Counted from the stretch's first letter, positions 10,243 through 56,856 are shown. The stretch is DNA of 64,000 bases from Candidatus Omnitrophota bacterium (GCA_043811395.1 JBDRNE010000025.1:7137-71136), one strand, 5' to 3'. Translations and numbers: made by a program. The notes: generated from the sequence alone by a model not told the origin.

Positions 10243-11688
10243 ATGGGGGGAAAGAACGAAATAAAAAAGGTATTATTGGTTTCGCCAAGGTTTAATAAAG
10301 GCAGACATCAAATATCTATTCATCCTTTGGCAGGTCTTGGGTATATTGCCGAATCTTTAAAAAATAACGGTTTTGAAGTTAATGTTTTCGACATGAACTT
10401 GCAGTATTCTGAAAAGGATTTGGCAGAGAAAATACATAGTTTTCTTCCCGATATGGTAGGTTTTTTGATTATGACTTTTGGCTATAAAGATACTTATCGT
10501 CTGATTGAAGGAGTTAAAGAGCTGGAGCCGAATGTTAAAATTGCTGTTGGTGGACCACATATTTCTACTTTAAAAGAAAAGGTTTTACAGGAATGCTCCG
10601 CAATTGATTATGGCGTTTTGCTCGAAGGTGATAAAAGTTTTGTTAGGTTGTGTCTTAATGACGACGTAAAGAATATTCCGGGGATAGTTTATCGCGCGGA
10701 AGGTAAAATAAGAAAAAATGAGTTTAATGAATTTATTGAAAATCTAAATGAATTACCTTTTCCTAGATATGAAGCATTTGAACTTGAAAAGTACCCTGTT
10801 AAACAGATAGGCATTGTTACTTCAAGGGGGTGCCCGTATAAGTGCATATATTGTCCGGTAGTTTCTGCCATAGGTCGAAAATTTAGAGCTAGGAACGCTG
10901 ACAATATTGCAGAAGAAATAGAATATTGGCACAGTAAAGGATACAGAGAAATTCTTATTTTGGACGACAATTTTACTTTAGTTCGTTCACGCGTGGAAGA
11001 ATTATGTTGGTTGCTTATAAACAAAGATTTAAAAGACATTAGACTTAAATGTCCCAATGGTATAAGAGCTGATAAAACAGATTATGAACTTTTAAAGCTT
11101 ATGCGAAAAGCCAGGTTTGATATGATCTCTTTTGGAGTGGAATCTGCCAGTAGTAAGGTTTTAAAAAATATAAATAAAGACGAGAATATTGATGTAATAG
11201 AAGAAGCTATAAAAAACGCGTGTAGTTTAGGGTTTGAAGTTAGCCTGTTTTTTATAATAGGTTCTCCGGGAGAAACCCCGGAAGATGTTCAAAAGTCTTT
11301 TTCTTTGGCATTAAAATATCCAGTTGCTGTCAGTAATTTTTATAATATTATTCCGTTTCCTGATACAGAACTTTTTGACTGGATTAGTAAAAATAAATAT
11401 TTCTTGCGTCCATTGGAAGACATTATGAATAACGCGTCACATTTTATAAATGAGCCCTGTTTTTTTACGCCTGAAATGTCTTACGAAGAAAGAAAGCGCG
11501 CTTTTAAAAATGGTAAGAAAATTTCGAAAATTATACGAAAAAGGTTTATCGAAAAAAAACTAAAGGGTCCTGAAGTTTTAAAGAGATTGTTCAGCTGTAT
11601 TTACACTATTGGGGTTGTGGAACAAGTTTTAACGACAAATAAATCTGTAATAAAACTGAAGGAAAAATTGAAACAAGCAGTTTGTTAA
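10243..11688 (+). CDS. cobalamin (B12)-binding domain radical SAM enzyme (class B)
   Basis: N-terminal B12-binding Rossmann-like region (KKVLLVSP...GLGYIAESLKNNGFEV...IAVGGPHIS) followed by SRGCPYKCIYCPV (CxxxCxxC) and an elongated radical SAM core. Confidence 0.8.
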   Translation: MGGKNEIKKVLLVSPRFNKGRHQISIHPLAGLGYIAESLKNNGFEVNVFDMNLQYSEKDLAEKIHSFLPDMVGFLIMTFGYKDTYRLIEGVKELEPNVKIAVGGPHISTLKEKVLQECSAIDYGVLLEGDKSFVRLCLNDDVKNIPGIVYRAEGKIRKNEFNEFIENLNELPFPRYEAFELEKYPVKQIGIVTSRGCPYKCIYCPVVSAIGRKFRARNADNIAEEIEYWHSKGYREILILDDNFTLVRSRVEELCWLLINKDLKDIRLKCPNGIRADKTDYELLKLMRKARFDMISFGVESASSKVLKNINKDENIDVIEEAIKNACSLGFEVSLFFIIGSPGETPEDVQKSFSLALKYPVAVSNFYNIIPFPDTELFDWISKNKYFLRPLEDIMNNASHFINEPCFFTPEMSYEERKRAFKNGKKISKIIRKRFIEKKLKGPEVLKRLFSCIYTIGVVEQVLTTNKSVIKLKEKLKQAVC

Positions 11689-11701
11689 CGAAGGAGCACA
11701 A

Positions 11702-12364
11702 ATGGGAAGCCTTCTAAATGTAATAACGCCGCTTCATAAAAGGGCAAAAAGAGATTATGTCGCGAGGATGATAAAAGATAAAGTCGATTGTTCCCGAATT
11801 GCCCGCCAATATGGAAAAGATTATTGGGATGGTGACAGAAAATACGGGTATGGCGGGTATAAATATGACGGTAGATGGAGTGTTGTTGCACAAGGGTTAA
11901 TTGATTTATATAAACTTCCAGTAAATGCAAAGATTTTAGATGTTGGGTGCGGGAAAGGGTTTCTTTTGTATGAATTAAAAAAACTTCTGCCCCGTGCGGA
12001 AATAAAAGGATTTGACATTTCAAGCTATGCAATTGAAAATTCAAAGGAAGAGGTCCGGGATAGTTTGTTTGTGCATAAAGCAGAGGACGAGTTTCCTTTT
12101 AATGACAAAGAATTTGATCTGGTTATTTCGATCTCAACGCTTCACAATTTGTGCGTGGGCGACTTAAAAAGCGCTCTCAAAGAAATTGAGAGAACCGGCC
12201 GGAATAAGTATGTTACGATGGAAGCTTACAGGAACGAAGAAGAACTTTTTAATCTCGAGTGTTGGGCATTGACTTGTGAATCGTTTTTTAGACCCGAAGA
12301 ATGGCAGTATTTGTTTAATGAGTTTGGGTATTCGGGTGATTTTGAATTTATTTATTTTGAATAA
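11702..12364 (+). CDS. class I SAM-dependent methyltransferase
   Basis: Motif I ILDVGCGKGFLL, acidic motif II (EIKGFDIS), motif III (FDLVISISTLHNL). AAGGAG RBS 6 nt upstream of ATG 11702. Confidence 0.65.
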   Translation: MGSLLNVITPLHKRAKRDYVARMIKDKVDCSRIARQYGKDYWDGDRKYGYGGYKYDGRWSVVAQGLIDLYKLPVNAKILDVGCGKGFLLYELKKLLPRAEIKGFDISSYAIENSKEEVRDSLFVHKAEDEFPFNDKEFDLVISISTLHNLCVGDLKSALKEIERTGRNKYVTMEAYRNEEELFNLECWALTCESFFRPEEWQYLFNEFGYSGDFEFIYFE

Positions 12365-12375
12365 TAAGAGGGGTT

Positions 12376-13446
12376 ATGGGGAATATTTATACTAAAATGA
12401 AAATATTTCATTTCAAAGAAAAAATAGATTCTCTTCCAAGGGAAAAAGGAAAAGTTTTAGCGCCTATTCACATCAGAATAAAACCGACAAATGTGTGCAA
12501 TCATAACTGTTCGTATTGCGCGTATAGGGCGGACGATTTGCAGTTGGGCAAAGACATGGTTCAGCGTGATTTTATTTCTAAAGAAAAAATGATGGAAATA
12601 ATTGATGATGTAATTGAAATGGGGGTTAAAAGTGTTACTTTCTCCGGCGGGGGAGATCCTTTTTGTTATCCATATCTTTTTGACGCGGCAAAAAGATTAT
12701 CCGAATCAGATGTTAAATTTGCTTCACTTACAAATGGGGCTTTGCTGGACGGGGAAAAAGCTGAAATTTTCGCGAAAAACGCTTCCTGGATTCGAATTTC
12801 TATGGATGGGTGGGATGACGAAAGTTATTCTGAGTATCGGGGGGTACCCAAAGGAGAATTTACGAAAGTTTTGAATAACATAAAAAATTTTAAAACGTAT
12901 AATGGTGCCTGTTTTTTAGGGGTTTGTATTATTGTTGATAAAAAAAATGCGTCACATGTATATGAATTAGCGGAACAAATAAGAGAGAGCGGGGCTAATA
13001 GCGTGAAAATAGCGCCGTGTATTGTTAGTAACAGCGGTAAAGAGAATAATGAGTATCATGAGCCTATATTTGATAAAGTTAAAGTAGAGATTGCTCGAGT
13101 TATAAAAAAACTTGGTGATGTTGATTTTGAGATATTTGATTCATACCACGGACAACTAGAAACTTTTGAAAAAGAATATTCATGGTGCCCGTATCTGCAG
13201 ATTTTGCCTGTTATTGGCGCGGATCTCAATATTTATCCGTGTCAGGATAAGGCTTATAATCTTGACGAAGGGCTGATAGGATCTATAAAAGAAGTCAGGT
13301 TTAAAGATTTTTGGTTTTCTGATAAAAATAAGTTTTTTAAAGTTAATCCTTCGCGGCATTGCGCGCATCATTGCGTGGCAGACGGCAAAAATAAACTCAT
13401 TTTAGATTACTTGAATGTAGACAAAAATCATATGGGGTTTGTATAA
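12376..13446 (+). CDS. radical SAM enzyme with C-terminal Cys-rich (SPASM/twitch-like) extension; paralog of 7154-8227
   Basis: CNHNCSYCAY cluster, SFSGGGDPF SAM-binding motif, C-terminal cysteines (WCPYLQ ... YPCQDK ... HCAHHCV). Confidence 0.7.
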   Translation: MGNIYTKMKIFHFKEKIDSLPREKGKVLAPIHIRIKPTNVCNHNCSYCAYRADDLQLGKDMVQRDFISKEKMMEIIDDVIEMGVKSVTFSGGGDPFCYPYLFDAAKRLSESDVKFASLTNGALLDGEKAEIFAKNASWIRISMDGWDDESYSEYRGVPKGEFTKVLNNIKNFKTYNGACFLGVCIIVDKKNASHVYELAEQIRESGANSVKIAPCIVSNSGKENNEYHEPIFDKVKVEIARVIKKLGDVDFEIFDSYHGQLETFEKEYSWCPYLQILPVIGADLNIYPCQDKAYNLDEGLIGSIKEVRFKDFWFSDKNKFFKVNPSRHCAHHCVADGKNKLILDYLNVDKNHMGFV

Positions 13447-13462
13447 CCAAAAGAAGTATCGG

Positions 13463-14482
13463 ATGTATTTAAAAAAAACGAAATTGCATAAACGTCAAAG
13501 GTTGCATAGAGCCGGAGATTTGAGAACTATTTCGCTTGATGTGACATCCCTGTGTAGTATGAATTGTCCTCATTGTTATGCTGAATCATTTGTAAATGCG
13601 AAACCTATAGAACTTGATGTTTTGAAGCGCGCCATGGACGAAGCATATGAACTTGGTGTATTTCACTATGTTTTTCAGGGAGGAGAGCCCATTGAGGATC
13701 CTGAGAGGTTGGAAGCGATATTTCGCATGTGTTATCCTGATGAAACTTACATGAATGTTGTAAGTAACGGGTGGCACATGAATCGTGATATGATACGTTG
13801 GCTAAAGAGTTTAAAGGTTGATAAAATTGCTTTTAGTCTGGATTCGGGGATAGAAGAAGAACATGATAAGAACAGGCGAGCGGGTTCTTATAACAGAGTT
13901 CTTGAGGCCGTGGATATTGTTTTGGGAGAAGGTCTTTTAACATCCATTTCTATCGTAGTTACCCATCACTCTTTGCATTCGGCAGGATTCAAGGCCGCGT
14001 ATGATTATGCCGAAAGTAAAGGAATAAGACTGGATGTGCAGATAGCCGAACCTGTCGGAAAGTGGGATGGCAACACAACATGTCTTATGACTCCCGACGA
14101 TTCTCTGTATATCAAGGAATTGCAAAGAAAAGCTCCTATCTTAAAAAACGGACAATGTATGGTGAATCGCGATATTTTTTGCGGAGAACAAGATCATTGT
14201 CCCGCCGGAACCGAATTTATGGGGCTTTCCATTGACGGTGAGTTATTGCCGTGTAATTTTCTTCAATTCAGCGTAGGGAATATACGCAAGGAAACAATAG
14301 GAGAAATGCGTAGGAAATTGTTGACGAATCATTGGTTTTGGGGACAACACCCTTGTTGCTTATGTGGAGAAGATCCTGACTTTATAAATTCATTTATTAC
14401 TCCTTATGTCGGGCAGAAAAAACCGCTTGATGCGAACAAAATCTTTAATTTAATGAAAGGGGCAGAGCATGGGAGAGTTTGA
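13463..14482 (+). CDS. radical SAM / SPASM-domain enzyme
   Basis: CSMNCPHCYA cluster and FQGGEP motif; C-terminal SPASM-like cysteine pattern (FCGEQDHCPAG ... LPCNF ... HPCCLCGE). Track ORF begins at TTG 13439; ATG 13463 is preferred. Confidence 0.65.
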   Translation: MYLKKTKLHKRQRLHRAGDLRTISLDVTSLCSMNCPHCYAESFVNAKPIELDVLKRAMDEAYELGVFHYVFQGGEPIEDPERLEAIFRMCYPDETYMNVVSNGWHMNRDMIRWLKSLKVDKIAFSLDSGIEEEHDKNRRAGSYNRVLEAVDIVLGEGLLTSISIVVTHHSLHSAGFKAAYDYAESKGIRLDVQIAEPVGKWDGNTTCLMTPDDSLYIKELQRKAPILKNGQCMVNRDIFCGEQDHCPAGTEFMGLSIDGELLPCNFLQFSVGNIRKETIGEMRRKLLTNHWFWGQHPCCLCGEDPDFINSFITPYVGQKKPLDANKIFNLMKGAEHGRV

Positions 14483-15236
14483 TGGTTTTAAGAAAACAGG
14501 GATAGATTCAGATGTTGAAAAGGACCTGGAAAAGCATTTTCGCAGATTTAATATTGGCCCCTTGGATGCGCTTAAACTTTTTCCCGTACTTGCTCGCCGG
14601 CAGTGGTTGAAGCGATTCTTAGCCCATGTTGAGCTGTTCCAAAAGACCTTAGATGTGCCTGGGGATATTGCGGAGTTGGGAGTCTTTCGCGGATTGGGTC
14701 TTATGACGTGGGCTAATTTGCTGGAAGCCTACTGCATAGGGGACCGCACAAAGATTGTTTATGGGTTTGACAATTGGAAGGGGTTTACTGAACTTGATCC
14801 AGAAGACGGAAAAGACTCTACCTCAGTTCAAAAGTTTGTTGGTGGGTTTTCTCCGGAAAAATACTATAACGAGATAAAACAAGCGATTGCCATTTTTGAT
14901 AAAGACAGATTTATTCCATGGAAACCACGTGTAAAATTGGTCAAAGGAGATGTAGTAAAAACAGTACCAAAATTTATAAAAGAGAATCCAGGAACACGTT
15001 TTTCTTTGATTCATTTTGATTGCGATCTATATCGTCCTACGAAGATTGCACTAGAAGTTCTATGGCCTGTTTTGTCTCGAGGTGGAGTAATGTTGTTCGA
15101 TGAATATTCTATTTCGGAATGGCCGGGAGAAACCAGAGCTGTTGATGATTTTTTTAACAACAAAGCAAATGTTAGGATCAAGGCGCTTTCGTGGACCAAT
15201 GCTCCAGCAGGCTATGTTATTAAGGGAAGCGATTGA
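14469..15236 (+). CDS. TylF/MycF/NovP-family sugar O-methyltransferase (class I SAM MT)
   Basis: 255 aa with ELGVFRG(L) SAM-binding motif and DCDLYRPT metal/substrate motif resembling macrocin O-methyltransferases; overlaps the upstream gene by 14 nt. Confidence 0.55.
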   Translation: MGEFDGFKKTGIDSDVEKDLEKHFRRFNIGPLDALKLFPVLARRQWLKRFLAHVELFQKTLDVPGDIAELGVFRGLGLMTWANLLEAYCIGDRTKIVYGFDNWKGFTELDPEDGKDSTSVQKFVGGFSPEKYYNEIKQAIAIFDKDRFIPWKPRVKLVKGDVVKTVPKFIKENPGTRFSLIHFDCDLYRPTKIALEVLWPVLSRGGVMLFDEYSISEWPGETRAVDDFFNNKANVRIKALSWTNAPAGYVIKGSD

Positions 15237-15381
15237 GGGGGATAATAAAAAGCCCACCGCTCAAATAGGAGAGGAAAGTGGTAGGGGGGGCGCATAGGAA
15301 CTATGTTGTTGATTTTGGTTCTTTTTTTGAAAACGTACTGTATAAACGAGGCGATATCATAAAGAGGCAGGTGGGGGACGT

Positions 15382-16287
15382 TTGACATATTTGATAGTAG
15401 GATCGGACAGTCTTATCGGAGGGGCTTTGATGTCCGAGTTGAAACGGACTGGCAGGCAGGTAATAGGGACGACAAGGCGCCGCGAAACCGTAGATACGGA
15501 TCATTTTTATCTTGACCTATTAAAAGACCCCGGAACGTGGAATTGTCCCGATTTTGTTACTGTTGCTTTTGTCTGTGCCAGTGTAACCAGGATCGAAAGT
15601 TGTAGACGTGATCCAGTTGAAAGCGCTCGTGTGAACGTAAAAGGAATATTCGAATTGGTTAGGAATTTGACTGAGAAGGGGATATTTGTGATTTACCTGT
15701 CGACGAATCAGGTGTTTGACGGGACGGTACCACATCGTTTGCCAGATGATCAATTGTCTCCCATTACAGAATATGGAAAACAGAAGGCAGAAGCCGAACG
15801 CTTGATCAGCCGGTTTGATCCTCTTGTTGCGATTGTACGTTTTTCAAAGATTTTGGAACCGAGGAATCCGCTTTTTTGCGAGTGGCAAAGGCTTCTTCGA
15901 AAAGGGAAAGTTATTCATCCTTTTTTCGATATGGTTATGGCTCCGGTGGGGCTTGCTTGTGCGGTTTCCATATTATCGATTATGGGAGAACATTGTTTAC
16001 CCGGTATTTTTCAAGTGTCCGGAAATGAGGACGTTTCGTATGCCGAAGTTGCCCATATAGGAGCGACAATATGTGGCGTAGATGAAAGATTAGTACAGCC
16101 GGTTCTTTCATCCAGATCCGGGTGTTATTTAGAAAAAGTAGTCGAACACACGACTATGGATGTGACCAGGTTAAAATTAGTTTTTGGAGTAGAAATACCG
16201 GATGTAAGAACTACAATTAAGACAATATTTACTGAACTACTGGCATTCGAAGAACGTTCTGTATCTCTGAAAAAAGGAGAATATTAA
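15382..16287 (+). CDS. RmlD-like NAD(P)-dependent sugar reductase/epimerase (dTDP-4-dehydrorhamnose reductase family)
   Basis: TTG start; N-terminal LIVGSDSLIGGAL nucleotide-binding loop; YGKQK catalytic YxxxK; ~300 aa, typical RmlD size. Locally higher GC than the rest of the window. Confidence 0.55.
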   Translation: MTYLIVGSDSLIGGALMSELKRTGRQVIGTTRRRETVDTDHFYLDLLKDPGTWNCPDFVTVAFVCASVTRIESCRRDPVESARVNVKGIFELVRNLTEKGIFVIYLSTNQVFDGTVPHRLPDDQLSPITEYGKQKAEAERLISRFDPLVAIVRFSKILEPRNPLFCEWQRLLRKGKVIHPFFDMVMAPVGLACAVSILSIMGEHCLPGIFQVSGNEDVSYAEVAHIGATICGVDERLVQPVLSSRSGCYLEKVVEHTTMDVTRLKLVFGVEIPDVRTTIKTIFTELLAFEERSVSLKKGEY

Positions 16288-16289
16288 TA

Positions 16290-17474
16290 ATGCCAACAAA
16301 CCCGGTCGAAATGTGTGTGTTATGTGGTCACGATACTTTTAAAGAATTTTCCCAATCTATGCGGTTAAAGTCTGTTACTTCGGATTGTAAATTCTGGGAT
16401 TGTGGCGGAATTATCGAGGTTTGCGAATATTGCGGGCATATCCAAAAACGAATGGATCCTTTGTGGAGGGAAGAAGTATCTCGGATATATGCCAACTATA
16501 CGATATACCACTTAAGTGAGGGGAAAGAACAGGTTGTTTTTGATGATGATAGTTCAGCAGTTTTTCCCCGGTCCTTGCGGATATTTGAGTCCTTGGAAGG
16601 ACAAGTTAACATATCGGAGCAAGGTTGTTTGATGGATGTGGGATGCGGAAATGGAGAATTACTGTGTTTGTTCAATAAAAAATATCCTGGGTGGGTTCTT
16701 GCTGGATACGAGCAGGACGAAAAATGTAGAGGAAATATTGTCCGAATACCTGGTGTGCGGCATTTTTATTCCGGCGAGATCGATCTGATCGATCAGATCG
16801 ATCAGAAATTTGATTTCATCACACTTATGGATGTTTTGGAACATGTATTCCAGCCAGTGCAGTTATTGAAACAGCTGCGTAGTAAGCTCGTTTCGGGCGG
16901 TATGGTACTTGTCCATGTGCCTGATTATTCACAGAATCCGTTTGATTTGTTAGTTATGGATCATTGTTCTCATTTTACACCGGAAACGCTCATCCAGACC
17001 GCCCGGCATTCTGGTTTTGAAGTAAGAGTTTTCGCTACGGACTGGATACCGCGATACATTACGGTTGTACTGTGTGTTACGAAAAACCAGGCCATGCAAA
17101 AGATCGCGAAAAGGGATCCGAAGGATGTGGCAAAAGCAGTGGCAGTTGATATCAAATGGTTGGAGGATGTGGTTGAGCACGCTCGTAAGAGTGCAGATAA
17201 GGGCGAGTTGGGTGTTTTTGGAACAGCGATAGCCGGAACTTGGCTGGCTGGCAGGTTGGGTTCCTTGGCATGTTTTTTTGTGGATGAAGATCCTATGAGA
17301 TTGGGGAAAACGCACATGGGTAGGGAAGTTATTCATCCGTTTGATGTGCTCGAAAACAACGAAGTATATTTACCCGTGGTGCCTGAAAAAGCTACACAAA
17401 TTAATAATCGCTTCAAAAGATCTGAAAAATTATTGAAACTTATTCTTCCTCCGATGTTTTCTAGCAAATTATGA
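16290..17474 (+). CDS. NDP-hexose C-methyltransferase-like enzyme (N-terminal Zn-ribbon, class I MT core, C-methyltransferase C-terminal domain; TylC3/EvaC-like architecture)
   Basis: CVLCGHD ... CEYCGH zinc-ribbon; LMDVGCGNGELL motif I; C-terminal GVFGTAIAGTWLAGRLG ... FFVDEDP Rossmann-like tail characteristic of sugar C-methyltransferases. AAAAGGAGAA RBS upstream. Confidence 0.55.
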   Translation: MPTNPVEMCVLCGHDTFKEFSQSMRLKSVTSDCKFWDCGGIIEVCEYCGHIQKRMDPLWREEVSRIYANYTIYHLSEGKEQVVFDDDSSAVFPRSLRIFESLEGQVNISEQGCLMDVGCGNGELLCLFNKKYPGWVLAGYEQDEKCRGNIVRIPGVRHFYSGEIDLIDQIDQKFDFITLMDVLEHVFQPVQLLKQLRSKLVSGGMVLVHVPDYSQNPFDLLVMDHCSHFTPETLIQTARHSGFEVRVFATDWIPRYITVVLCVTKNQAMQKIAKRDPKDVAKAVAVDIKWLEDVVEHARKSADKGELGVFGTAIAGTWLAGRLGSLACFFVDEDPMRLGKTHMGREVIHPFDVLENNEVYLPVVPEKATQINNRFKRSEKLLKLILPPMFSSKL

Positions 17475-17674
17475 ACAACTGTTTGCTAAGTTTTTTATGT
17501 TCTTTACAAGATAATTTAGAGCTATGTGGGCTAAATGGATGAATGGTTTGTTTGTGAGGTTAGTGGAGAAATTTTGATAAAGAATGTGTAAGTAAAAAGC
17601 TTTGAAACCACAACATTTTGTGGTTAACTGCGGTGTTTCCATAAAAACAGTACCTTGAATAGGAGACGTAGTTA

Positions 17675-19038: not shown

Positions 19039-19839
19039 ATGAATAGCAGAACAAAAAACTTGAAATTCAAACAAACATCCGTAAGTAAAGAAATCGCGGG
19101 AAAACTTTTTTTCTTTGAAGGTTATAGCGAAAAGAATGTTGAAGATGGAGTAGATTCGTTTAAACATTTTTTAAAGAAATACAAAAAACTATACAGAATT
19201 CTGAAGGTTATGATCTCACCTGTATGTTTTGATAATTCGTTGGGTCGGTTCATAAATAAAGAGATTGGTAATCAAGAAGGTTGTTTTATAAACTTAGGAT
19301 CAGGGAATGAACGAATTCATGAGAAAGTAGTTAATTTTGATATTTTTGGCTATGATGAAGTGGACATTATTTGTGATATTTGCAGTCTTCCAATTGAAGA
19401 TAATTCGGTTGATGTGGTTTTTAATTTGTCTGTGTTAGAACATGTTCCATTTCCGCAGAAGGTTGTATCTGAAATTTGGCGGGTACTTAAACCTGGCGGA
19501 TTGGTTTTTTCTGATGTGCCGTTTGTTATGGGGTTTCATGCTTCGCCATATGATTATAGCCGATGGACAGCTGTTGGCATAAAAAAACTTTACGCGAAAT
19601 ATGACATTTTAGATTTTAAAGTTAACGGAGGGCCGACTTCCGCATTTTTGTGGATTTTTCAGGAATGGTTTGCTATGCTGTTATCCTTTGGTATAAAGGC
19701 GTTATATCTTTTATTGCACATTTTTATAATGTGTTTGACTTTTCCGATAAAGTTTATCGACATAATTTTGAGATATCATCCAATGGCCGAAAATATTGCG
19801 GCCTCATATATTTTGATTGGAAGAAAAACCTATGAGTAG
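19039..19839 (+). CDS. class I SAM-dependent methyltransferase (Methyltransf_11-like)
   Basis: INLGSGNERI motif I, DIICDICSLPIEDNSVDVVFNLSVLEHV motif II/III region, VLKPGG post-III motif. Confidence 0.6.
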   Translation: MNSRTKNLKFKQTSVSKEIAGKLFFFEGYSEKNVEDGVDSFKHFLKKYKKLYRILKVMISPVCFDNSLGRFINKEIGNQEGCFINLGSGNERIHEKVVNFDIFGYDEVDIICDICSLPIEDNSVDVVFNLSVLEHVPFPQKVVSEIWRVLKPGGLVFSDVPFVMGFHASPYDYSRWTAVGIKKLYAKYDILDFKVNGGPTSAFLWIFQEWFAMLLSFGIKALYLLLHIFIMCLTFPIKFIDIILRYHPMAENIAASYILIGRKTYE

Positions 19840-21772
19840 TTTAAAAAAGTATATAGATTCTTTTACTCATTCCTTGGTAATTCAGTTTATCTGTAGAAAA
19901 AAAATTACAATATTTGTTGGTGCGGGTCTTATATTTTTTGTAGTGTTTTTAGCGGTAAACAATTATTCTCCGATCATAGGATTGTGGGAAGGATCGGTTG
20001 TATATTGGAATTTTTTGCCGGAAAGACAACCTTCCTTAATGTTGTCAATTTCAGTGTCTGGGGATACTATCAGTATGCATGGTAGGGGGTATGCTTTATT
20101 ATACATTTCCCGTTGGGTATTGGATATAGTTGGGCATAGTCTTACAATGATGAGGCTTTTTCCCGTTATGTATGGACTTAGTGCCCTTTTTTTATTTTTC
20201 ATTGTTTTAAAAAGATGGTTTGGGGTTAAAACTGCGTTTTTAGGTGTACTTTTATTATCAACAAATCATGTGTTCTTAACCTATCAGCATATGTTGGTTG
20301 TGCAGATGGTATCTCTCGCGGCTGTATTATTTTGCATTGAACGTTTTCAAAATCTCAACTATAAACACACTAAGGTTGCGGCAATTACCATGGGATTGGC
20401 CTGTGCTTTAGTGTCTCCGCACTACATTATAGGTCGTTTTTGCATGCTGGCAATTCTGATGTTTTATGTCATAGACTGTGGAGGTAGCTATACCGCTTGT
20501 AGTAAAGATTATACGTCGATTAGTGCTCGTGAAAGGGTGAACACAATTGTAATTATATTTCTGAGTGCAATAGCCATACTATTTCTTTTCTATCCAGGGA
20601 ACGTTTTTTTACTTTTAAGCAAAAAGTTTATATTCACTGCGGCCGGAGAATATACCGTTACTTGGCGTGAAGCCCTAAACAGTATTGTACATAATGCTAA
20701 ATTTTTTTTAAGATACTTTGCTCTTGGAAATTTTTGCTCTAAATATCCCGATGACATTCTGGTAACTTTGCCGTATCCACTCGAAAGTAAGATAATTACG
20801 GTTTTGGCAGTTTTAGGGATAGCAGTTAGTTTGAAGAGAGTCAAAAACTACAAAATATTGTTTTTATTCATGATGTTATCAGTTACGAGTTTTATGCCGT
20901 TTTTTTCTCAAATTTATCCGGGAAAAATTTTTTTTGATTCTTCGAGTTTAAGTTCTTTTCGTACATTTTTTATTATTCCCTTCATGCTTATTTTCGCGGT
21001 TTTGGGAGTGAAGTATGTTTATCGAAAAATAAAAGATAGAAAAGTTTTTTGGATAAAATGTTTTTATATAGCGCTTGTTGTGTTGATTCTGTCTAGGCTT
21101 GGAGTTTGTTTGTACGAACAAAACCGGTTCCAGGCATATGTTGATAACTATCAATTTGATTTTTCACAGAAAGCTGTCCAAGCATCTCGAGATGAAAATA
21201 TTGCTTTACCGAATGACCAGAAAAGAGAATTGAACATAAATCAAATCTATTATCATAATCTTGCACAATTCATTGCTGATAAAATAGATGAGAAAAAAAA
21301 TATTTCGCAAAATACAGAATTGATCTATATACCAGAGGAATATTATACCCCGGATTATTATAGGTATGGTTCGGGAAATATGCCATTTAAGGGTGATTCA
21401 TATTACTTCAAGATGTACTTGACGTTTTACCTGAGGGAAGCAGGGATGAATGTGGGATATTTGGCTCTTAAAACAGATTATCCTCAGCCTCTAACGGGTA
21501 GGATAATTGGAATGCTGGAAAATTTCAGCTATACAGAAGGTGCAATGCGACAGCTAAAAACAAATCCGAAATATAACAATTTTATCGGTAATTTGCGCGA
21601 GTGGTCCCCGATTAAATCTAATTTTAGGCAGATTGGGGAATATGTTGTAAATGGAGCTGGACTTTGCCCTGCTGAATATATTTTGGTCACGAATAAAGAG
21701 GAAGCAGATGCCTGCGAGAAGCTACTGGGGAAAGCTATAACATTGAGAATGCCTGATGATATAGCAAAATGA
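19832..21772 (+). CDS. polytopic membrane protein, GT-C fold glycosyltransferase-like (ArnT/PMT family-like)
   Basis: ~12 predicted TM helices in the N-terminal two-thirds, a large C-terminal soluble domain, and an early loop RWVLDIVGHSLTMMRLFPVMYGLSALFLFFIVLKRWFG resembling the ArnT/PMT first-loop region. ATG 19832 overlaps the upstream TAG. Confidence 0.45.
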   Translation: MSSLKKYIDSFTHSLVIQFICRKKITIFVGAGLIFFVVFLAVNNYSPIIGLWEGSVVYWNFLPERQPSLMLSISVSGDTISMHGRGYALLYISRWVLDIVGHSLTMMRLFPVMYGLSALFLFFIVLKRWFGVKTAFLGVLLLSTNHVFLTYQHMLVVQMVSLAAVLFCIERFQNLNYKHTKVAAITMGLACALVSPHYIIGRFCMLAILMFYVIDCGGSYTACSKDYTSISARERVNTIVIIFLSAIAILFLFYPGNVFLLLSKKFIFTAAGEYTVTWREALNSIVHNAKFFLRYFALGNFCSKYPDDILVTLPYPLESKIITVLAVLGIAVSLKRVKNYKILFLFMMLSVTSFMPFFSQIYPGKIFFDSSSLSSFRTFFIIPFMLIFAVLGVKYVYRKIKDRKVFWIKCFYIALVVLILSRLGVCLYEQNRFQAYVDNYQFDFSQKAVQASRDENIALPNDQKRELNINQIYYHNLAQFIADKIDEKKNISQNTELIYIPEEYYTPDYYRYGSGNMPFKGDSYYFKMYLTFYLREAGMNVGYLALKTDYPQPLTGRIIGMLENFSYTEGAMRQLKTNPKYNNFIGNLREWSPIKSNFRQIGEYVVNGAGLCPAEYILVTNKEEADACEKLLGKAITLRMPDDIAK

Positions 21773-21830: not shown

Positions 21831-23411
21831 ATGCGAATAATGTTTATTATAAACGAGTTAGGAATAAACGCGCCTTTTGGACCGATGATATTATCGGCGG
21901 TTCTTAAAAAAAAAAGACATGATGTTAGTCTAGGTGTAATACAAAAGGAAGACCTTGAAAAAAAAATAGGTTCATGGAAACCAGATATTCTCGCGTATAG
22001 TATGATGTCAGTTGACATGAAGGACATGAAGAAGTTCAATGATTCTTTGCGAAAAAAAATAAAGATTTTCACTATTTTGGGCGGTGCTCATCCTACCTTA
22101 GATCACAGTTGTATAGATGATCCCGGAATTGACGCAATTTGTGTGGGAGAAGGGGAAGAGGCGATAGTTGAGGTTGTTGAGGCGCTAGAAAATGGAAAAA
22201 GTTTGGAAGGTATTAAAAACATTATTACAGATAAGGCGTCTCCTTTAGAGTTGAGAGATCTTATAGAAGATTTAGATACGGTTCCTTTTATGGACAGGGA
22301 ACTCGTTTACGCGCATCGGGAAATGGCACGTTTTGGGGTTAAAGGGATTTGGACAAGCAGAGGATGTGTTTTTAGGTGTCCGTATTGTTTTAATAGCCGT
22401 ACGAATGAAATTTTCAAAAACAAAGGAAGAATTTTTAGACGGCGCAGTGTTGAGTCAGTAATAAAAGAAACCGAACAATTGGTTTCAAAGTATCGAGTTG
22501 ATTTTATTCGGATGCAGGATGATGTTTTTATTTATAAAGTTGATGATTGGTTAAAAGAATTTGTGGATAAATGGGCAACTCGAATAAAAATTCCATTCTA
22601 TTGTTTACTGCGTTCAGAGACTGTTACGGAAGAAATGGCTTTTTATTTAAAAAAGGCAGGTTGTTTTTCTATCGCGATGTCAATAGAGTCAGCAGATGAT
22701 GATATAAGAATTCGTATGATGCGCCGAAAAGTTGAAAAATCAGATTTAGAGAAAGCGTTCAGTATTTTTAAGGAACATAAGATCAATGTGTACGCTAACA
22801 CAATGCTGGCACTTCCATTTACAAAGCTTGAAGATGATATTGCGTCGGTCGATTTTGCTATAAAAGTTAAGCCTGAAATGCCGAACTTTTCAATTTTTAT
22901 GCCATATCCTGGTACGGATTTAGGAGATTATTGCGCGAGAATCGGAGTGTATGATGTTAACCAGAATCATATAGAATACGGTATGCGTAACGCAAGTTCT
23001 TTAAAATGTTTTACAAAAAAAGAAAAAGATGCCCAATATAACCTTTGCGAACTGGCAATAATCGCTGTTAAATTACCTTTTTTGAGAAATTTAATCGTAA
23101 ATCATCTTATACATTGGAGCCCGAATAATTTTTTCTTTTTTATGCACTACATTTTTTCTATTACAGCTTATGGGAAAAAGATCTTTTATTTCAAGCATAC
23201 ATTTTTTGAATATTTTGAACTATTGGGACGGACCCTAAAACATTATATCTATGATTTTTTGAAAGGTGAAAAGAAAGATATGTGTAAAGAGAAGCAAGAA
23301 AAAATAAACAAATGTGAGACGGTTCTTGCCGAAAAAGAGCGTAAAGAAGAACTTGAAAAATGTATGGAGGCGATGGAAACCGGTGAACCAGTCGGCTGGT
23401 TGGCAAGTTGA
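21831..23411 (+). CDS. cobalamin (B12)-binding domain radical SAM enzyme (class B)
   Basis: N-terminal B12-binding domain (FTILGGAHPTL, CVGEGEEAIVEVVEAL) then SRGCVFRCPYCFNS. AAGGTGG RBS before ATG 21831. Confidence 0.8.
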   Translation: MRIMFIINELGINAPFGPMILSAVLKKKRHDVSLGVIQKEDLEKKIGSWKPDILAYSMMSVDMKDMKKFNDSLRKKIKIFTILGGAHPTLDHSCIDDPGIDAICVGEGEEAIVEVVEALENGKSLEGIKNIITDKASPLELRDLIEDLDTVPFMDRELVYAHREMARFGVKGIWTSRGCVFRCPYCFNSRTNEIFKNKGRIFRRRSVESVIKETEQLVSKYRVDFIRMQDDVFIYKVDDWLKEFVDKWATRIKIPFYCLLRSETVTEEMAFYLKKAGCFSIAMSIESADDDIRIRMMRRKVEKSDLEKAFSIFKEHKINVYANTMLALPFTKLEDDIASVDFAIKVKPEMPNFSIFMPYPGTDLGDYCARIGVYDVNQNHIEYGMRNASSLKCFTKKEKDAQYNLCELAIIAVKLPFLRNLIVNHLIHWSPNNFFFFMHYIFSITAYGKKIFYFKHTFFEYFELLGRTLKHYIYDFLKGEKKDMCKEKQEKINKCETVLAEKERKEELEKCMEAMETGEPVGWLAS

Positions 23412-32330: not shown

Positions 32331-32364
32331 TTTTTATTCGAAAAACAATAGGAACGGAAATATA

Positions 32365-33039: not shown

Positions 33040-33057
33040 AATGGATAGAAGTATAGA

Positions 33058-35259: not shown

Positions 35260-35283
35260 AATGATCTTGGATAGGGAGGAACA

Positions 35284-35514: not shown

Positions 35515-35522
35515 GGTATAAA

Positions 35523-39851: not shown

Positions 39852-39859
39852 TTTTGGGG

Positions 39860-42218: not shown

Positions 42219-42243
42219 ACGTTCCCGGGAGAAAACAAAAACC

Positions 42244-44016: not shown

Positions 44017-45480
44017 ATGAAAATACTTTTTATATATTCGTTATATGAGATCATGTCCTTTGAAAAACCACTTAGTACACCAGAAGTGATTCAATTTGGC
44101 ATATCCTACATATCTTCTTTTTTAAAAAAGCATGGGCATAAAACGCGGTTAATGGTTTTAAGCCGGGTTTCCGGTAAGAAAAATCTGGAACTGATAGACC
44201 GCTATCTTGAAGAATTTTCCCCTGATTTAATTTGTTTTTCAGCAGTAAGTAGTGAATACGGTTTTATTCGGGATATAGCCACATATATCAGAAAAAAATT
44301 TCCGGATATTTATCTCGCAATAGGCGGTGTTCACGTTTCTTTGAATCCTGATGATGAAGTTTTAAATACTTTTGATGCTTTATGCATAGGAGAAGGCGAA
44401 TGGCCGGTGCTTGAATTGGTTAACAACTTGCGGGACAAAAAAAAACCTGCCGGGATACAAAACCTTTGGATAAAAAGTGAAAAAGGTATTGAGAAAAATT
44501 CTGTCCGTTCATTTTTAAGAGATCTTGACCAATTGCCGTTTCCTGACAGGGATATGTGGAAAGAATGGATCAGTGAAACGCGCGGCGCGCGGGAATCAAT
44601 ACTTCTCGGGAGGGGATGTCCTTTTGAATGTACTTATTGTTCCAACCACGCGCTTAAAAAAATAGCAGGAGGAACATATACAAGATTCCGTTCTCCGGAC
44701 AATATCTTGAGTGAAATTAAAAGTATCGTTTCTGAAACTGACAAAGGAAAAGAAATATATCTTGAAGTGGAAAGCATTTCCGTAAACAAAGAATGGGTTC
44801 TGGAGCTTTGCGGAAAAATAGAAGAATTTAATAAAGAGCGAATTAGGCCTATTTCTTTCGGTGCGAATGTAAGAATTACTCCGAAAGCGGATCTTGAAGA
44901 TGTTTTTTACGCGTTTAAGAAAAGTAATTTCAGATTCATAAATATAGGCCTTGAATCCGGAAGCGAAAGAGTGCGGCGCGATATACTTAAACGCAATTAT
45001 TCAAATGAGGATGTTATAAACGCGGTGAAGACGGCCAGGAAATACGGTTTTGAGGTGTCTTTTTTGAACCTTGTAGGTATTCCGGGAGAAACCATTGAAG
45101 ATTTTAAGGAAACGATAAAGATTAATAAGATATGTCAGCCGGAACTGACAGGTCTTTCTATTTTTTATCCTTATCCTGGTACAGAGCTTTATTCCGTGTG
45201 TGAGAGAAAAGGATTTTTGAAAGAACCGCTTAATACCGAAATGGAGAGAGGAAGAGCCAGGTTGAATTTACCTGGATTCAGTCGGAAGCAAATCGAGAAG
45301 AATTATATCTGGTTTGATTATAATGTATACCGCGGAAAGAAATCCTTAAGTGTATTATTAAAACGGGTTTTGGCTCGGCAGATAAGGGCAAATCCGGGGC
45401 TTTTTGTTTTGTATAAAAAAATTAAGAAAAGTATATATTCATCCGGGAATTTTTTAAAAAAGGAAAAAACACGGTTTTAA
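44017..45480 (+). CDS. cobalamin (B12)-binding domain radical SAM enzyme (class B)
   Basis: B12-binding N-terminus (AIGGVHVSLNPDD, CIGEGEWPVLELV) and GRGCPFECTYCSNH cluster. Confidence 0.8.
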   Translation: MKILFIYSLYEIMSFEKPLSTPEVIQFGISYISSFLKKHGHKTRLMVLSRVSGKKNLELIDRYLEEFSPDLICFSAVSSEYGFIRDIATYIRKKFPDIYLAIGGVHVSLNPDDEVLNTFDALCIGEGEWPVLELVNNLRDKKKPAGIQNLWIKSEKGIEKNSVRSFLRDLDQLPFPDRDMWKEWISETRGARESILLGRGCPFECTYCSNHALKKIAGGTYTRFRSPDNILSEIKSIVSETDKGKEIYLEVESISVNKEWVLELCGKIEEFNKERIRPISFGANVRITPKADLEDVFYAFKKSNFRFINIGLESGSERVRRDILKRNYSNEDVINAVKTARKYGFEVSFLNLVGIPGETIEDFKETIKINKICQPELTGLSIFYPYPGTELYSVCERKGFLKEPLNTEMERGRARLNLPGFSRKQIEKNYIWFDYNVYRGKKSLSVLLKRVLARQIRANPGLFVLYKKIKKSIYSSGNFLKKEKTRF

Positions 45481-53026: not shown

Positions 53027-53028
53027 AT

Positions 53029-54018
53029 ATGGATTCTATAACAGTCGAAAATGTTACGAAAACAAAAACTTTAAAAAAAGCCATTGTTGTCCCGTCTTAT
53101 AAAGTGTCGGATAGCTTGCCGCTTCTCTTAGAAAAAATACCATCGACGAGCGTTGATTATATCATTGTGGTTGATGATAAATGCCCTGATGGTTCAGGTC
53201 TTGGCGCGGAGAAACTTAACAAAAAAAATTGTGTTGTAATTTATCATGAACAAAACCAAGGCGTTGGCGGCGCGGTTATTTCAGGGTATTTAAAAGCACT
53301 TGATTTAGGTTGTGACATAATTGTAAAAATGGACGGAGACGGTCAAATGGATCCGGCGGATTTAGAAAAGTTTATAGAAGCACTTTCGCGCGGGTCAGCC
53401 GATTATGTTAAAGGCAATAGGTTTAATGATGTTACGGCGTTAAGAAATATGCCGAAAATACGTCTTTTCGGTAACAGTGTACTGTCTTTTATCATCAAAG
53501 TGGTTTCCGGCTATTGGGATATAATGGACCCCACGAACGGTTATACCGCAATCCATAGAAAGGTATTGGAAAGGATTGATTTGAATAAAATATCTAAAGG
53601 ATATTTTTTTGAAACAAATATGCTGATAGAGCTTAATATTGTTGACGCGGTTGTAAAGGATATTTCTATCCCGGCTAAATATGATAATCAAAACAGTTCT
53701 CTTAGCATAGGAAGAGTTCTCATAGAGTTTCCGTTTAAGCTGATGAATGGGCTGTTAAGAAGAATTTTCTTAAAATATTTTGTTTATGATTTTAATGTCG
53801 CGTCAGTTTGTATTTTGCTGGGAGTTCCACTTTTTATGTGTGGTATCATTTTTGGCGCTAAAGAATGGATAAATTCGTGTTTAACTGGCCAGCCGAGGAC
53901 TTCCGGAACGATTATTCTTATCGCGTTAATTTTAATTGTTTCTTTTCAGATGCTACTCAAAGCGGTAAGCATAGACATTTATAAAACACCTAAAAAGCCT
54001 CAATTTCGAACAGACTGA
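53029..54018 (+). CDS. GT2-family polyprenyl-phosphate glycosyltransferase (DPM1/GtrB-like) with C-terminal TM segments
   Basis: AIVVPSYKVSDSL, VVDDKCPDGS and DGDGQMD (DXD) motifs; C-terminal TM helices (VASVCILLGVPLFMCGIIFG; IILIALILIVSFQMLL). Confidence 0.7.
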   Translation: MDSITVENVTKTKTLKKAIVVPSYKVSDSLPLLLEKIPSTSVDYIIVVDDKCPDGSGLGAEKLNKKNCVVIYHEQNQGVGGAVISGYLKALDLGCDIIVKMDGDGQMDPADLEKFIEALSRGSADYVKGNRFNDVTALRNMPKIRLFGNSVLSFIIKVVSGYWDIMDPTNGYTAIHRKVLERIDLNKISKGYFFETNMLIELNIVDAVVKDISIPAKYDNQNSSLSIGRVLIEFPFKLMNGLLRRIFLKYFVYDFNVASVCILLGVPLFMCGIIFGAKEWINSCLTGQPRTSGTIILIALILIVSFQMLLKAVSIDIYKTPKKPQFRTD

Positions 54019-54062: not shown

Positions 54063-55457
54063 ATGCCGTTAAAGGTAATGTTCATTAACGCGATAAATCC
54101 CTACAGGGAAATTGAATCCCGGTATCCCCCGCTTGGAGTAGGGTATCTCATAAGTTCTCTTAGGCATCATTTTGACAAGAATACTTTTGAATTTAAGGTA
54201 ATTGATCATAATGTTAAAGCGGAAATTGCCGAATTTGAGCCAAGTATTGTAGGAATTACCTTTGTTACGCAAAATTGTAATATTGCCGTTAAATATGCTG
54301 AAATATGTAAAGGAAAAAGTATTCCGGTGATCGCGGGAGGTATTCATATTTCGTCATTACCTTTTTCTCTTTCTTCTCATATGGATATAGGAGTTGTTGG
54401 CGAGGGAGAGAGAACGATTATTGATATTTTTAAGTTATTTTTAGAACGCGGCAAGTTTGACGCGGAAGATCTTGAGAAAATTAAGGGTATTGTGTATAGA
54501 ACCGGTGCGGGAGACCTGAAACTTACGCCGGAACGTGAGAAAATATTACCATTGGATGAAGTACCTTTGCCGTCGAGAGATCTGTTTGAGATCAAACGGC
54601 ATAGTTATTTGTTCTCTTCAAGAGGATGTCCTTATCATTGTTCTTTCTGCGCGTCTTCCAGGTTCTGGAACCAGGTCAGGTTCTTCTCAGCGGAATATGT
54701 GGTTGGTGAGATAAGGGAATTGGCAGAAAAATATAAAGTGAATCTTATAAGTTTTTACGATGATTTAATGATCGCCGATCGTGCGAGGGTAGAAAAAATA
54801 GCTAGTTTATTACGGAAAGAATACAGCTTGAACAAAATTAAATTCGCGATTAACGCGAGAGCTAATTTGCTTACGGACAATATGGCAGGGCTTCTTAAGG
54901 ATATGAATGTTGTTTCAGTAAACATGGGATTAGAGTCCGGGAGCGAAAAGGTGCTTCGTTATTTAAAAGGCGGCTCGGTTAGTGTTGAGCAGAATAGGAG
55001 GGCAATAAAATCCTTGAAAAAATTTGGAATAGCCGCTAACGCGTCTTTTGTTATAGGATCTCCGAATGAGACCAAAGAAGATATTCTCAAGACATATGAT
55101 TTTATCGGCAAAAATAAACTAAATCACATAGATATCTATCTTTTAACTCCCTTACCCGGAACGCCCATGTGGGGTTACGCTAAAGAGAGAGGGCTTGTCG
55201 ATGATAATATGAATTGGGATGACTTAAACCTTAACTTTGCGCCCGGCGCGCGTGGAACAATTAATCTGTCGGAGACTCTGACAGAGAAAGAAATATACGC
55301 GTTATACAGAAAATTTCAGAGACGAAGGGTATATACTGTTATTAAAAATTTGCCAAGACATCCTTTCCGCCGAGATATTTGTTCCTCTTTCGGTAGAATG
55401 GCGGCAAATCTTATCAAAAAAGGAATAAAACGGCAGAATGAAAATACTATTAATTAG
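54063..55457 (+). CDS. cobalamin (B12)-binding domain radical SAM enzyme (class B)
   Basis: B12-binding N-terminus (VIAGGIHISSLPF, VVGEGERTIIDIF) and SRGCPYHCSFCASS cluster. Confidence 0.8.
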   Translation: MPLKVMFINAINPYREIESRYPPLGVGYLISSLRHHFDKNTFEFKVIDHNVKAEIAEFEPSIVGITFVTQNCNIAVKYAEICKGKSIPVIAGGIHISSLPFSLSSHMDIGVVGEGERTIIDIFKLFLERGKFDAEDLEKIKGIVYRTGAGDLKLTPEREKILPLDEVPLPSRDLFEIKRHSYLFSSRGCPYHCSFCASSRFWNQVRFFSAEYVVGEIRELAEKYKVNLISFYDDLMIADRARVEKIASLLRKEYSLNKIKFAINARANLLTDNMAGLLKDMNVVSVNMGLESGSEKVLRYLKGGSVSVEQNRRAIKSLKKFGIAANASFVIGSPNETKEDILKTYDFIGKNKLNHIDIYLLTPLPGTPMWGYAKERGLVDDNMNWDDLNLNFAPGARGTINLSETLTEKEIYALYRKFQRRRVYTVIKNLPRHPFRRDICSSFGRMAANLIKKGIKRQNENTIN

Positions 55458-56856
55458 CGCGCCGTATGTAGATTATTACGGTCCTATAAAATTGGCTTCA
55501 GGAAGATATTTTCCTCTTGGTTTGGGGTATATTGCTTCATATTTGCGTAGGAAAAGTCATGAAGTTCTTTTATGTGAACCGGAAGCGCAAGGGTTAAGCT
55601 ACAAAATGATACATGATATTTTTTTTAGGGAGAAACCCGATGTCATTGGGATCTCGAGTGCTACCCCCAATTTTTATAACGCGGTAAAACTTGCCAAGTT
55701 AGCAAAAACCGCGACCACTGCCGTGGTAGTTTATGGTGGCGCTCACGCCAGCGCTATCCCGGAATTTATTGTTCAAAAGTACGGCGAATATTTTGATTAC
55801 TTAGTTGTTGGTGAGGGTGAAGAAACCCTTGGAGAGCTTGCCGCCTGCTTAAATGACAGGCAAATACCTTTTGAAGTCCCGGGGCTTTGCTTTTCTCACA
55901 ATGGGAACGTAGTCAGGACAGAGAATCGAAAACCTATGGAAAATTTAGACTCTTTGCCGTATCCCGCGAGGGATCTTATCTCTCCGAAATTATTCAGACC
56001 TAACATGCACAATGTTCGTTATAAAAAGTGTTTTACTATGCTGACAAGCCGTGGCTGTCCTTTCAATTGCTCTTTTTGCGCTTCGTATTTAACTATGGGG
56101 AAAAGATATCGTCCACATAGCGCTGATTATGTGCTTGGTGAGATGAGTTTTTTGCGCGAGCGCTATAATGCCCAACAATTGATAATAAATGATGACACAT
56201 TTACTTTGGATAGAGGTAGATTGGTCGAAATTTGTGAAGGTATGATAAAAAAACGGCTTAATTTTAAGTGGTTTTGTTTTTCTCAAATTGCGGCAGTAGA
56301 TAAAGATGTTTTAAAATTGATGAACGAGGCAGGCTGTTATAACATAGGGTTTGGAGTTGAATCGGCTTCCCCCCGCATTATGGAATCGATTGGTAAAACT
56401 ATTCCTTTAAAAAAATGCGCCGAAGTTATTAATGACGCGAACGCCCTAGGGATAAAGACCCAGGCCTTTTTTGTTTTCGGAAAAAAAGGAGAAACTCTTC
56501 AGGAAATGAAAGATACTGTGAAATTCGCGCTTAGCGTCAATCCGACATTGGCGTTTTTTAATATGCTTGTTCCGTATCCAGGGACGAGAGATTTCTCGGA
56601 TTTCTTTAAGGATGTTCCGTTAGAACAGATTGAATGGAAAGATTTTGTTGCCATAGGTACAAAATCCGTGTTAAAACAATCTTGCGGTAGAGCAATAGAT
56701 TTGGAGAAGATGCTAAGCGAGGCTAATTTGAAATTCTATTTCAGAGGCAAACAACTTTTACATATTTTATCGAAGATCGGGACTTGGCACGAATTCCGGG
56801 CATATATAACAGGCGCGGCGGCTTTAAGCTTGCAGATGATGAAATGGAATAAGTAG
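55438..56856 (+). CDS. cobalamin (B12)-binding domain radical SAM enzyme (class B); tandem with 54063-55457
   Basis: B12-binding N-terminus (VVYGGAHASAIPE, VVGEGEETLGELA) and SRGCPFNCSFCASY cluster; 20-nt overlap with the upstream paralog. Confidence 0.8.
   Translation: MKILLISAPYVDYYGPIKLASGRYFPLGLGYIASYLRRKSHEVLLCEPEAQGLSYKMIHDIFFREKPDVIGISSATPNFYNAVKLAKLAKTATTAVVVYGGAHASAIPEFIVQKYGEYFDYLVVGEGEETLGELAACLNDRQIPFEVPGLCFSHNGNVVRTENRKPMENLDSLPYPARDLISPKLFRPNMHNVRYKKCFTMLTSRGCPFNCSFCASYLTMGKRYRPHSADYVLGEMSFLRERYNAQQLIINDDTFTLDRGRLVEICEGMIKKRLNFKWFCFSQIAAVDKDVLKLMNEAGCYNIGFGVESASPRIMESIGKTIPLKKCAEVINDANALGIKTQAFFVFGKKGETLQEMKDTVKFALSVNPTLAFFNMLVPYPGTRDFSDFFKDVPLEQIEWKDFVAIGTKSVLKQSCGRAIDLEKMLSEANLKFYFRGKQLLHILSKIGTWHEFRAYITGAAALSLQMMKWNK

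Follow-up and report, generated by a model that had tools for sequence, protein, structure and literature searches.

Six families of B12-domain radical SAM proteins coupled to glycosyltransferases in a surface-glycan locus of an Omnitrophota bacterium

Several radical S-adenosylmethionine (SAM) enzymes that depend on B12 tailor sugars that have already been attached to something else: GenK, GenD1 and Fms7 methylate aminoglycoside sugars after glycosylation, and MoeK5 acts on a lipid-linked sugar. In a related arrangement a family 2 glycosyltransferase (GT2), HpnI, loads a sugar onto a lipid, the deacetylase HpnK trims it, and HpnJ then remodels the lipid-linked sugar. GenK, GenD1, Fms7 and MoeK5 figure in a 2026 review as Csp3 methylases within a mostly uncharacterised superfamily of 83,589 sequences and over 100 groups, of which the biggest are unexplored, and every functionally characterised group includes C-methyltransferases (PMC12931638). 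Here we describe a stretch of 64,000 nucleotides from a Candidatus Omnitrophota bacterium (GCA_043811395.1, JBDRNE010000025.1:7137-71136; below, the window, with positions counted from its first letter), which Pfam and NCBIfam annotation shows to be spanned by a single, very large surface-glycan locus. Among its roughly 59 open reading frames (ORFs) of at least 150 aa, encoded on the plus strand nearly throughout at a GC content of 37%, are six radical SAM proteins with a B12-binding domain, R1–R6. Each represents a separate conserved family that travels with its own glycosyltransferase module, and this pairing is the new result of our analysis.

The six genes lie on the plus strand at 10243-11688 (R1, 481 aa), 21831-23411 (R2, 526 aa, counted from the first ATG; an alternative GTG occurs at 21822), 36314-37828 (R3, 504 aa), 44017-45480 (R4, 487 aa), 54063-55457 (R5, 464 aa) and 55438-56856 (R6, 472 aa), all real reading frames at the positions where an original prediction, made from the DNA alone, had placed six paralogous class B radical SAM enzymes within a glycan locus. 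Pfam and annotation bear out the class B architecture and the glycan setting: an N-terminal B12-binding domain (PF02310, 43.5-74.9 bits; gathering cut-off 32.1) precedes a Radical_SAM domain (PF04055, 64-96 bits; cut-off 29.5) in the same order in every protein. R6 is 100% identical to an NCBI protein from a Candidatus Omnitrophota metagenome-assembled genome. No seventh B12-domain copy was found by tblastn of the 64-kb window. The CxxxCxxC motif is present in all six, at C197 in R1 (CPYKCIYC), C179 in R2, C197 in R3, C201 in R4, C189 in R5 and C207 in R6. Of the other signature strings predicted, GGxH is invariant; SRGCP(Y/F) is nearly so, deviating to SRGCVF in R2 and GRGCPF in R4; and CxGEGE holds in part, with GEGE in R2–R6, the preceding cysteine in R2–R4 and LLEGD at the corresponding place in R1. 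Outside the radical SAM motif, further cysteines are conserved in the R6 family (C266, C280 and C300 invariant, C198 at 90%) and in the R3 family (C109 invariant, C33 and C36 at 90%).

AlphaFold models of R6 and R3, built on orthologue alignments, have high predicted confidence (pLDDT 92.9 and 91.1), and in both a Rossmann domain of five strands precedes a TIM-barrel core. Foldseek comparison with the PDB matched both models to TsrM, QCMT/MgmA (9ccb), OxsB, CysS and AprD4, and R6 also to TokK, with TM-scores of 0.59-0.74, in agreement with the N-terminal B12 fold that had been predicted. A profile of the six proteins aligns with QCMT, TsrM and OxsB from the N-terminal domain on, and with AprD4 over the radical SAM core only. 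Of the residues that do not vary inside the R6 or the R3 family, many map in the models to the Rossmann strands or to positions immediately past them, an indirect support for a working cofactor site, and from these sequences and models we infer that R1–R6 bind cobalamin. A domain of this kind does not always do so: ArsL, like AprD4, has a similar one with no cobalamin bound. The combination of five-stranded Rossmann domain and TIM barrel seen in both models is the class I architecture of the superfamily; the related domain of AprD4 is cobalamin-free; and in solved class B structures the cobalamin is base-off and takes no ligand from the protein (PMC12931638), so that the GGxH histidine, which had been read as part of a ligand motif, is not a cobalamin ligand. 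The column aligned, weakly, with the lower-axial Trp76 of TokK contains F, V, D, S, Q and P in R1–R6; we had considered the lower-axial rule (TokK W76 versus TsrM R69) as a discriminator of methylases and dropped it, the alignment being too weak.

Pairwise identity among R1–R6 is 24-31%, whereas their orthologues in other phyla are 45-73% identical to them. In a neighbour-joining tree of 39 sequences (capped distances, 200 bootstraps), each of the six families was recovered as a clade in 200 of 200 replicates. On these comparisons R1–R6 are best read as six anciently diverged families; they are paralogous at the depth of the superfamily, and not as recent copies of one another. The overlapping pair R5 and R6 had been taken for a recent duplication. 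The overlap is real (the R6 start precedes the R5 stop by 20 nt), but the two proteins are 28% identical, their families are sisters in 4 of 200 bootstraps, and in the metagenome loci with R5 orthologues an R6 orthologue never lies beside them; on identity, tree and synteny together we reject a recent duplication.

R1 has an orthologue of 61% identity in an Elusimicrobia locus (L001/L004, in our numbering of related loci), and one Elusimicrobia locus holds R1, R4 and R6 orthologues together, at 61, 62 and 67%. R2 orthologues (60-70%) occur in Omnitrophota, Saganbacteria and Elusimicrobiota, R3 orthologues show 50-60% identity, and R5 orthologues (46-61%) were found in 21 metagenome loci and in L009. 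The R6 family, whose relatives were sought by an alignment-based genome scan, is large, with orthologues of 50-68% in Elusimicrobia, Nitrospirota, Deltaproteobacteria and WOR-1. Two carriers are in culture: Thiovibrio frasassiensis has a protein of the R6 family and Formivibrio citricus one of the R3 family. Natural fusions to a C-terminal class I SAM methyltransferase occur in R6-like and R3-like proteins (P0113 and P0240); the first of these is the R6-family protein of T. frasassiensis, encoded in a glycan locus (L110, 10001-12322). Stand-alone class I methyltransferase genes directly adjoin orthologues in L002, L084 and L086.

Six such genes among 59 ORFs exceed by far any plausible background for the superfamily, and the clustering is not chance, because synteny with GT2 genes is conserved in other genomes. 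By a BLAST-based count in which some contigs are redundant, a GT2 gene lies within 1.5 kb of 21 of 27 orthologues (78%), compared with 34 of 154 distant relatives (22%). The coupling is most elaborate for R2, which is adjoined by a GT2 with two C-terminal transmembrane helices (23471-24403, plus strand; orthologues 50-61%), a short-chain dehydrogenase/reductase (SDR; 24363-25397, plus; 40-43%) and a DegT aminotransferase (25348-26520, plus; 47-57%). All three are joined to an R2 orthologue in four loci from three phyla: the window, L086, L087 and L088. Along the whole of its sequence this GT2 aligns with ArnC (181.5 bits) and with PgfS (184 bits), in each case below cut-off. In L086, L087 and L088 the R2 orthologue also abuts a large membrane protein, a PMT_2 protein in the last two; directly upstream of R2 in the window, this slot for PMT_2/GT-C (C-fold glycosyltransferase) proteins is occupied by a 651-aa polytopic protein with about nine transmembrane helices (19817-21772, plus), a link of position only.

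The R3 module includes, upstream of the radical SAM gene at 30522-34211 (plus), a conserved 602-aa protein (30522-32330) and three hexapeptide acyltransferases; in L084 and L085, both kinds have orthologues (44-50% and 51-57%, respectively) upstream of the R3 orthologue. The 602-aa protein, which is always found in the R3 module (L084, 4029-5846; L085, 2053-3879), matched no Pfam family and gave weak GT-B-like hints only. The cognate GT2 is encoded at 38865-39851 (plus); its 45% orthologues directly follow the R3 orthologues in L084 and L085, where stop and start codons overlap. R4 stands downstream of a set of CDP-6-deoxyhexose genes (39854-44012, plus): a nucleotidyltransferase, a CDP-glucose 4,6-dehydratase above its curated cut-off (TIGR02622, 457 bits against 278), an RmlC-like gene, an SDR reductase and a GT2 (43188-44012). 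In L001 the R4 orthologue (62%) likewise has these CDP-sugar genes and a GT2 of this type upstream of it.

R5 is preceded by a GT2 with two C-terminal transmembrane helices (53029-54018, plus), whose best NCBIfam matches, all sub-cut-off, are AglJ, PpgS and a dolichyl-phosphate hexose transferase. A GT2 of this type is adjacent to the R5 orthologue in L009 and in the metagenome loci with adequate flank, and directly upstream in four of the latter, as in the window. R6 is followed by its own GT2 (56857-57645) and a polytopic membrane protein (57596-58963), both on the plus strand; related GT2s adjoin R6 orthologues in L001 (58%, with a PMT_2 protein next in line) and L010 (46%), and GT2s resembling the R5 partner lie nearby in most other R6-orthologue loci. 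The polytopic proteins beside R2 and R6 may be unrecognised GT-C-like enzymes, polymerases or flippases.

Loci in which B12-domain radical SAM and GT2 genes alternate also occur in Beckwithbacteria, Patescibacteria, Nanoarchaeia and Woesearchaeota. Many other clusters of several B12 radical SAM genes, in Anaerolineae and Bathyarchaeota, have no detectable glycosyltransferase: four to six such genes per ~20 kb stand without one in L037, L045, L048, L065, L070 and L080 (Anaerolineae/Caldilineae), and the same holds for the Bathyarchaeota clusters L035 and L058. Clustering as such is common in the superfamily, and the specific feature of the locus described here is the glycan-embedded arrangement in which the genes are paired with GT2s.

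How might these pairs work? With a confidence a little above even, we read the locus as a modular surface-glycan cluster in which each of the six families of class B architecture is a dedicated sugar-tailoring enzyme, coupled to the glycosyltransferase that handles the same sugar. An NDP-sugar would be made first, for R2 an amino sugar formed by the SDR and aminotransferase; a GT2 would transfer it to polyprenyl phosphate on the cytoplasmic side, where SAM and reductant are available and where the radical SAM enzyme, a soluble protein, would modify an unactivated carbon of the sugar; after flipping, a membrane glycosyltransferase would attach the modified sugar to the glycan. The partners of R2, R5 and probably R6 appear to be GT2s of the polyprenyl-phosphate sugar synthase type. 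That the GT2s of R2 and R5 look like such synthases, and that orthologous loci encode GT-C proteins, suggests action on a lipid-linked monosaccharide before flipping. R3 and R4, which are accompanied by ordinary GT2s, would probably act instead on the growing lipid-linked oligosaccharide or on an NDP-sugar. Modification at a lipid-linked stage has precedents in the deformylation carried out by ArnD, in HpnJ acting after HpnI, and in MoeK5, whose substrate is a phosphoglycolipid sugar. The chemistry would most likely be methylcobalamin-dependent C-methylation, as in GenK, GenD1, Fms7 and MoeK5, a judgement drawn from the prior that the superfamily provides.

Whatever the reaction, six independent modifications on different sugars are the most likely outcome, since the modules occur singly in other genomes (L088, L084, L006, L007 and L011), each with its own transferase. 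The original prediction had offered two options for six such enzymes in one locus. Distinct modifications on different sugars fit the evidence in outline, since a cognate glycosyltransferase module goes with every family; sequential C-methylation is disfavoured because those modules are found one at a time elsewhere.

Several observations weigh against our proposal. To our knowledge, a glycan structure has been reported for no organism carrying genes of the R families. The coupling of R1 and R4 rests on one related locus. Neither polytopic protein of the window (19817-21772 and 57596-58963) shows PMT_2 or GT-C similarity in Pfam, PDB or phmmer searches, so their link to the GT-C proteins stays positional. 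Annotation found no gene for cobalamin uptake or synthesis in the 64-kb window; in favour of cobalamin use, on the other hand, its biosynthesis occurs in part of the phylum Omnitrophota (PMC10066038). None of R1–R6 reaches a curated NCBIfam cut-off: scores are 75.4-164.7 bits for HpnJ (TIGR03471; cut-off 577.6), 58.8-163.9 for BchE (TIGR02026; 481.35) and 29.8-91.3 for the AprD4 diol dehydratase (NF033070; 500), and QCMT/MgmA (TIGR04014), PhpK (TIGR04479), HpnR (TIGR04367), TsrM (TIGR04428) and KedN5 (NF033712) all fall far below theirs. In the weak alignment described above, R3, R4 and R5 have polar residues (D, S and Q) at the equivalent of the lower-axial position, and only R1, R2 and R6 have apolar or hydrophobic ones. 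AprD4, a cobalamin-free dehydratase, is matched about as well as true methylases are, by fold and by sequence, and non-methylating members of the superfamily are not separable from methylases by either sequence or structure (PMC12931638).

The last three of these points also speak for a different and somewhat unlikely reading, in which some or all of the six do not methylate but rearrange, ring-contract, dehydrate, epimerise or cross-link a sugar. Precedents are HpnJ, which converts a lipid-linked glucosamine to a cyclitol after the action of the GT2 HpnI and a deacetylase, the ring contraction by OxsB and the diol dehydration by AprD4. For R1, R3, R4, R5 and R6, HpnJ ranks first or second among the NCBIfam matches below threshold; the logic of a GT2 plus a B12 radical SAM enzyme working on a lipid-linked sugar is that of HpnI and HpnJ; a polysaccharide deacetylase gene is present at 61956; and AprD4 is the best PDB match by sequence and an equally good one by fold. 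However, ApyD and BchE score about the same as HpnJ, so no specific relationship to HpnJ is indicated, nor do the BchE scores point to the clustering with BchE-like cyclases that would have told against the original prediction. The AprD4 alignment, moreover, leaves out the N-terminal domain, and most characterised members of the superfamily are methylases (PMC12931638).

A second alternative, which we consider improbable, is that one or more of the enzymes act on a part of the molecule other than the sugar: an N-acyl chain carried by a local acyl carrier protein (ACP) in the case of R3, the polyprenyl carrier, or a glycosylated protein. Directly upstream of R3, after the three hexapeptide acyltransferases, the interval 34261-36287 encodes FabH, an ACP-like ORF of 76 aa with the motif 'YDSLS' (35284-35514) and FabG, a combination that, with the acyltransferases, suggests an N-acyl (perhaps hydroxyacyl) amino sugar. 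Among NCBIfam models R3 scores highest, at 104 bits, with the 'ladderane' B12 radical SAM family of lipid biosynthesis; the structures of CysS and TokK carry pantetheinylated substrates; and L084, a locus with an R3 orthologue, ends in an STT3/PglB-type oligosaccharyltransferase gene (17334-17509), which leaves room for some such glycans to be attached to protein. Yet the ladderane score is far below the cut-off of 360 bits, the ACP match to PP-binding falls just under that of Pfam (20.3 against 20.8 bits), and FabH, ACP and FabG were not found beside the R3 orthologues of L084 and L085, where the GT2 and acyltransferase partners are conserved. Because those genes are missing there, we set aside the link between R3 and FabH–ACP–FabG as a primary reading.

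That all six act in sequence on one sugar or carbon, building an ethyl or branched alkyl group by successive methylations, is very improbable: although iterative class B methylases exist in TokK and CysS (PMC12931638) and the overlapping R5 and R6 genes are probably co-translated, the known iterative cases involve one enzyme rather than several, each family has a cognate GT2 module that stands alone in genomes elsewhere, and no R6 orthologue goes with the R5 orthologues.

Returning to the dedicated tailoring enzymes of our preferred reading, we suggest tentatively, as a possibility that may well not hold, that pairs of a GT2 and a B12 radical SAM protein, often with a GT-C protein, represent a general and undescribed route for tailoring polyprenyl-phosphate-linked sugars by radical chemistry on the cytoplasmic side, before flipping. 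Such a route would yield C-alkylated or carbocyclic (ring-contracted) sugars in the surface glycans of Omnitrophota, Elusimicrobia, Nitrospirota, Saganbacteria, CPR bacteria and DPANN archaea, and the six families would stand for at least six regio- or substrate specificities.

The locus as a whole is rich in sugar-nucleotide and assembly functions. In all, it encodes a carbamoyltransferase, eight epimerases, dehydratases or reductases of the SDR type, six conventional SAM methyltransferases, and glycosyltransferases numbering seven of the GT2 and two of the GT4 family. Export and assembly are represented by a Wzy_C-family polymerase or ligase (PF04932; 47630-48931, plus), an MsbA/PglK-like ATP-binding cassette exporter and a WecA/MraY-family initiating phosphoglycosyltransferase (60510-61469, plus; PF00953; TIGR02380 at 133.6 bits, below cut-off). 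Just upstream of R1, an NDP-heptose-like set (4041-10228) includes an SDR, a GmhA-like isomerase, an HldE-like protein with swapped domain order (cytidylyltransferase N-terminal, kinase C-terminal) and a split transketolase, a possible source of sedoheptulose 7-phosphate. At the other end of the locus, a polysaccharide-deacetylase-family gene (starting at 61956) is followed by a formyltransferase-like gene; the two activities predicted for this interval (61956-63682; ArnD-like and ArnA-N-like) are those that the R2 cassette would still need for an Arn-like route. No SxtJ or DUF5989 gene, both of which follow the carbamoyltransferase in L001 and L002, was found after the carbamoyltransferase gene of the window.

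Three further radical SAM genes, at 7145-8227, 12376-13446 and 13439-14482, which the original prediction left unmentioned, have no B12 domain and bring the total in the locus to nine; two of the three carry SPASM domains. Among their strongest matches below threshold are the tungsten-cofactor maturase family, the anaerobic sulfatase maturase and DesII, and similar genes accompany B12 radical SAM genes in L075, L085 and L087. GC skew is positive in all 2-kb bins (0.12-0.32), with almost all genes on one strand, and GC content by module ranges from 0.32 (30522-34211) to 0.40 (R6; 11702-17474), a variation in composition that is consistent with a mosaic, horizontally exchanged locus.

Antibiotic pathways are the source of the known sugar-acting members of the superfamily. 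The six conserved families described here belong to surface-glycan loci, where they are linked to particular glycosyltransferases, and the pairing is seen across many uncultured anaerobic lineages. In a library of open-access papers, searches for O-antigen, capsule, lipopolysaccharide or undecaprenyl-glycan contexts of class B radical SAM enzymes found nothing relevant. From the pairing each family gains a testable substrate hypothesis, namely the sugar handled by its partner GT2, and the prediction is that carriers display sugars with C-methyl groups or rearranged carbon skeletons new to polysaccharide chemistry. With two cultured carriers, T. frasassiensis and F. citricus, the question is experimentally approachable.

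Set beside the systems with which we began, R1–R6 resemble GenK, GenD1, Fms7 and MoeK5 in combining an N-terminal B12 domain with a radical SAM core and in being encoded among glycosyltransferase and sugar-tailoring genes; the known enzymes act on unactivated sp3 carbons of already attached sugars, a comparison made by published function only. They belong, however, to actinomycete antibiotic pathways, whereas R1–R6 come from a Wzy/WecA-type surface-glycan locus of the kind found in uncultured anaerobes and form six separate families, each with a cognate GT2. The HpnI/HpnK/HpnJ system shares the pairing of a GT2 with a B12-domain radical SAM protein, and for five of the six HpnJ ranks high among the matches below threshold, but the window contains no hopanoid genes and HpnJ is thought to contract a ring rather than to methylate. 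QCMT/MgmA (9ccb), TsrM, TokK, CysS and OxsB have the two-domain fold in common with our proteins, and QCMT is likewise compact (~450 aa); identities are 12-22%, and the substrates are peptides, tryptophan, a carbapenem and nucleotides.

The Arn pathway (ArnA/B/C/D/T) offers the closest parallel to the R2 cassette, in which the amino sugar formed by an SDR and an aminotransferase would be loaded onto polyprenyl phosphate by a GT2 that is ArnC-like and has transmembrane helices; a PMT_2 (ArnT-family) protein follows in orthologous loci. The scores set the two apart: the GT2 at 23471 reaches 181.5 bits against an ArnC cut-off of 529 (NF007986), and the aminotransferase at 25348 reaches 215.6 against an ArnB cut-off of 631 (NF008658). 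The Arn pathway has no radical SAM step, and the polytopic protein of the window is not recognisably ArnT-like. Judged by its gene content, the R2 cassette would work like the Arn pathway without being a member of it, and the six families as a whole are a new set, in a new context, within a known kind of enzyme.

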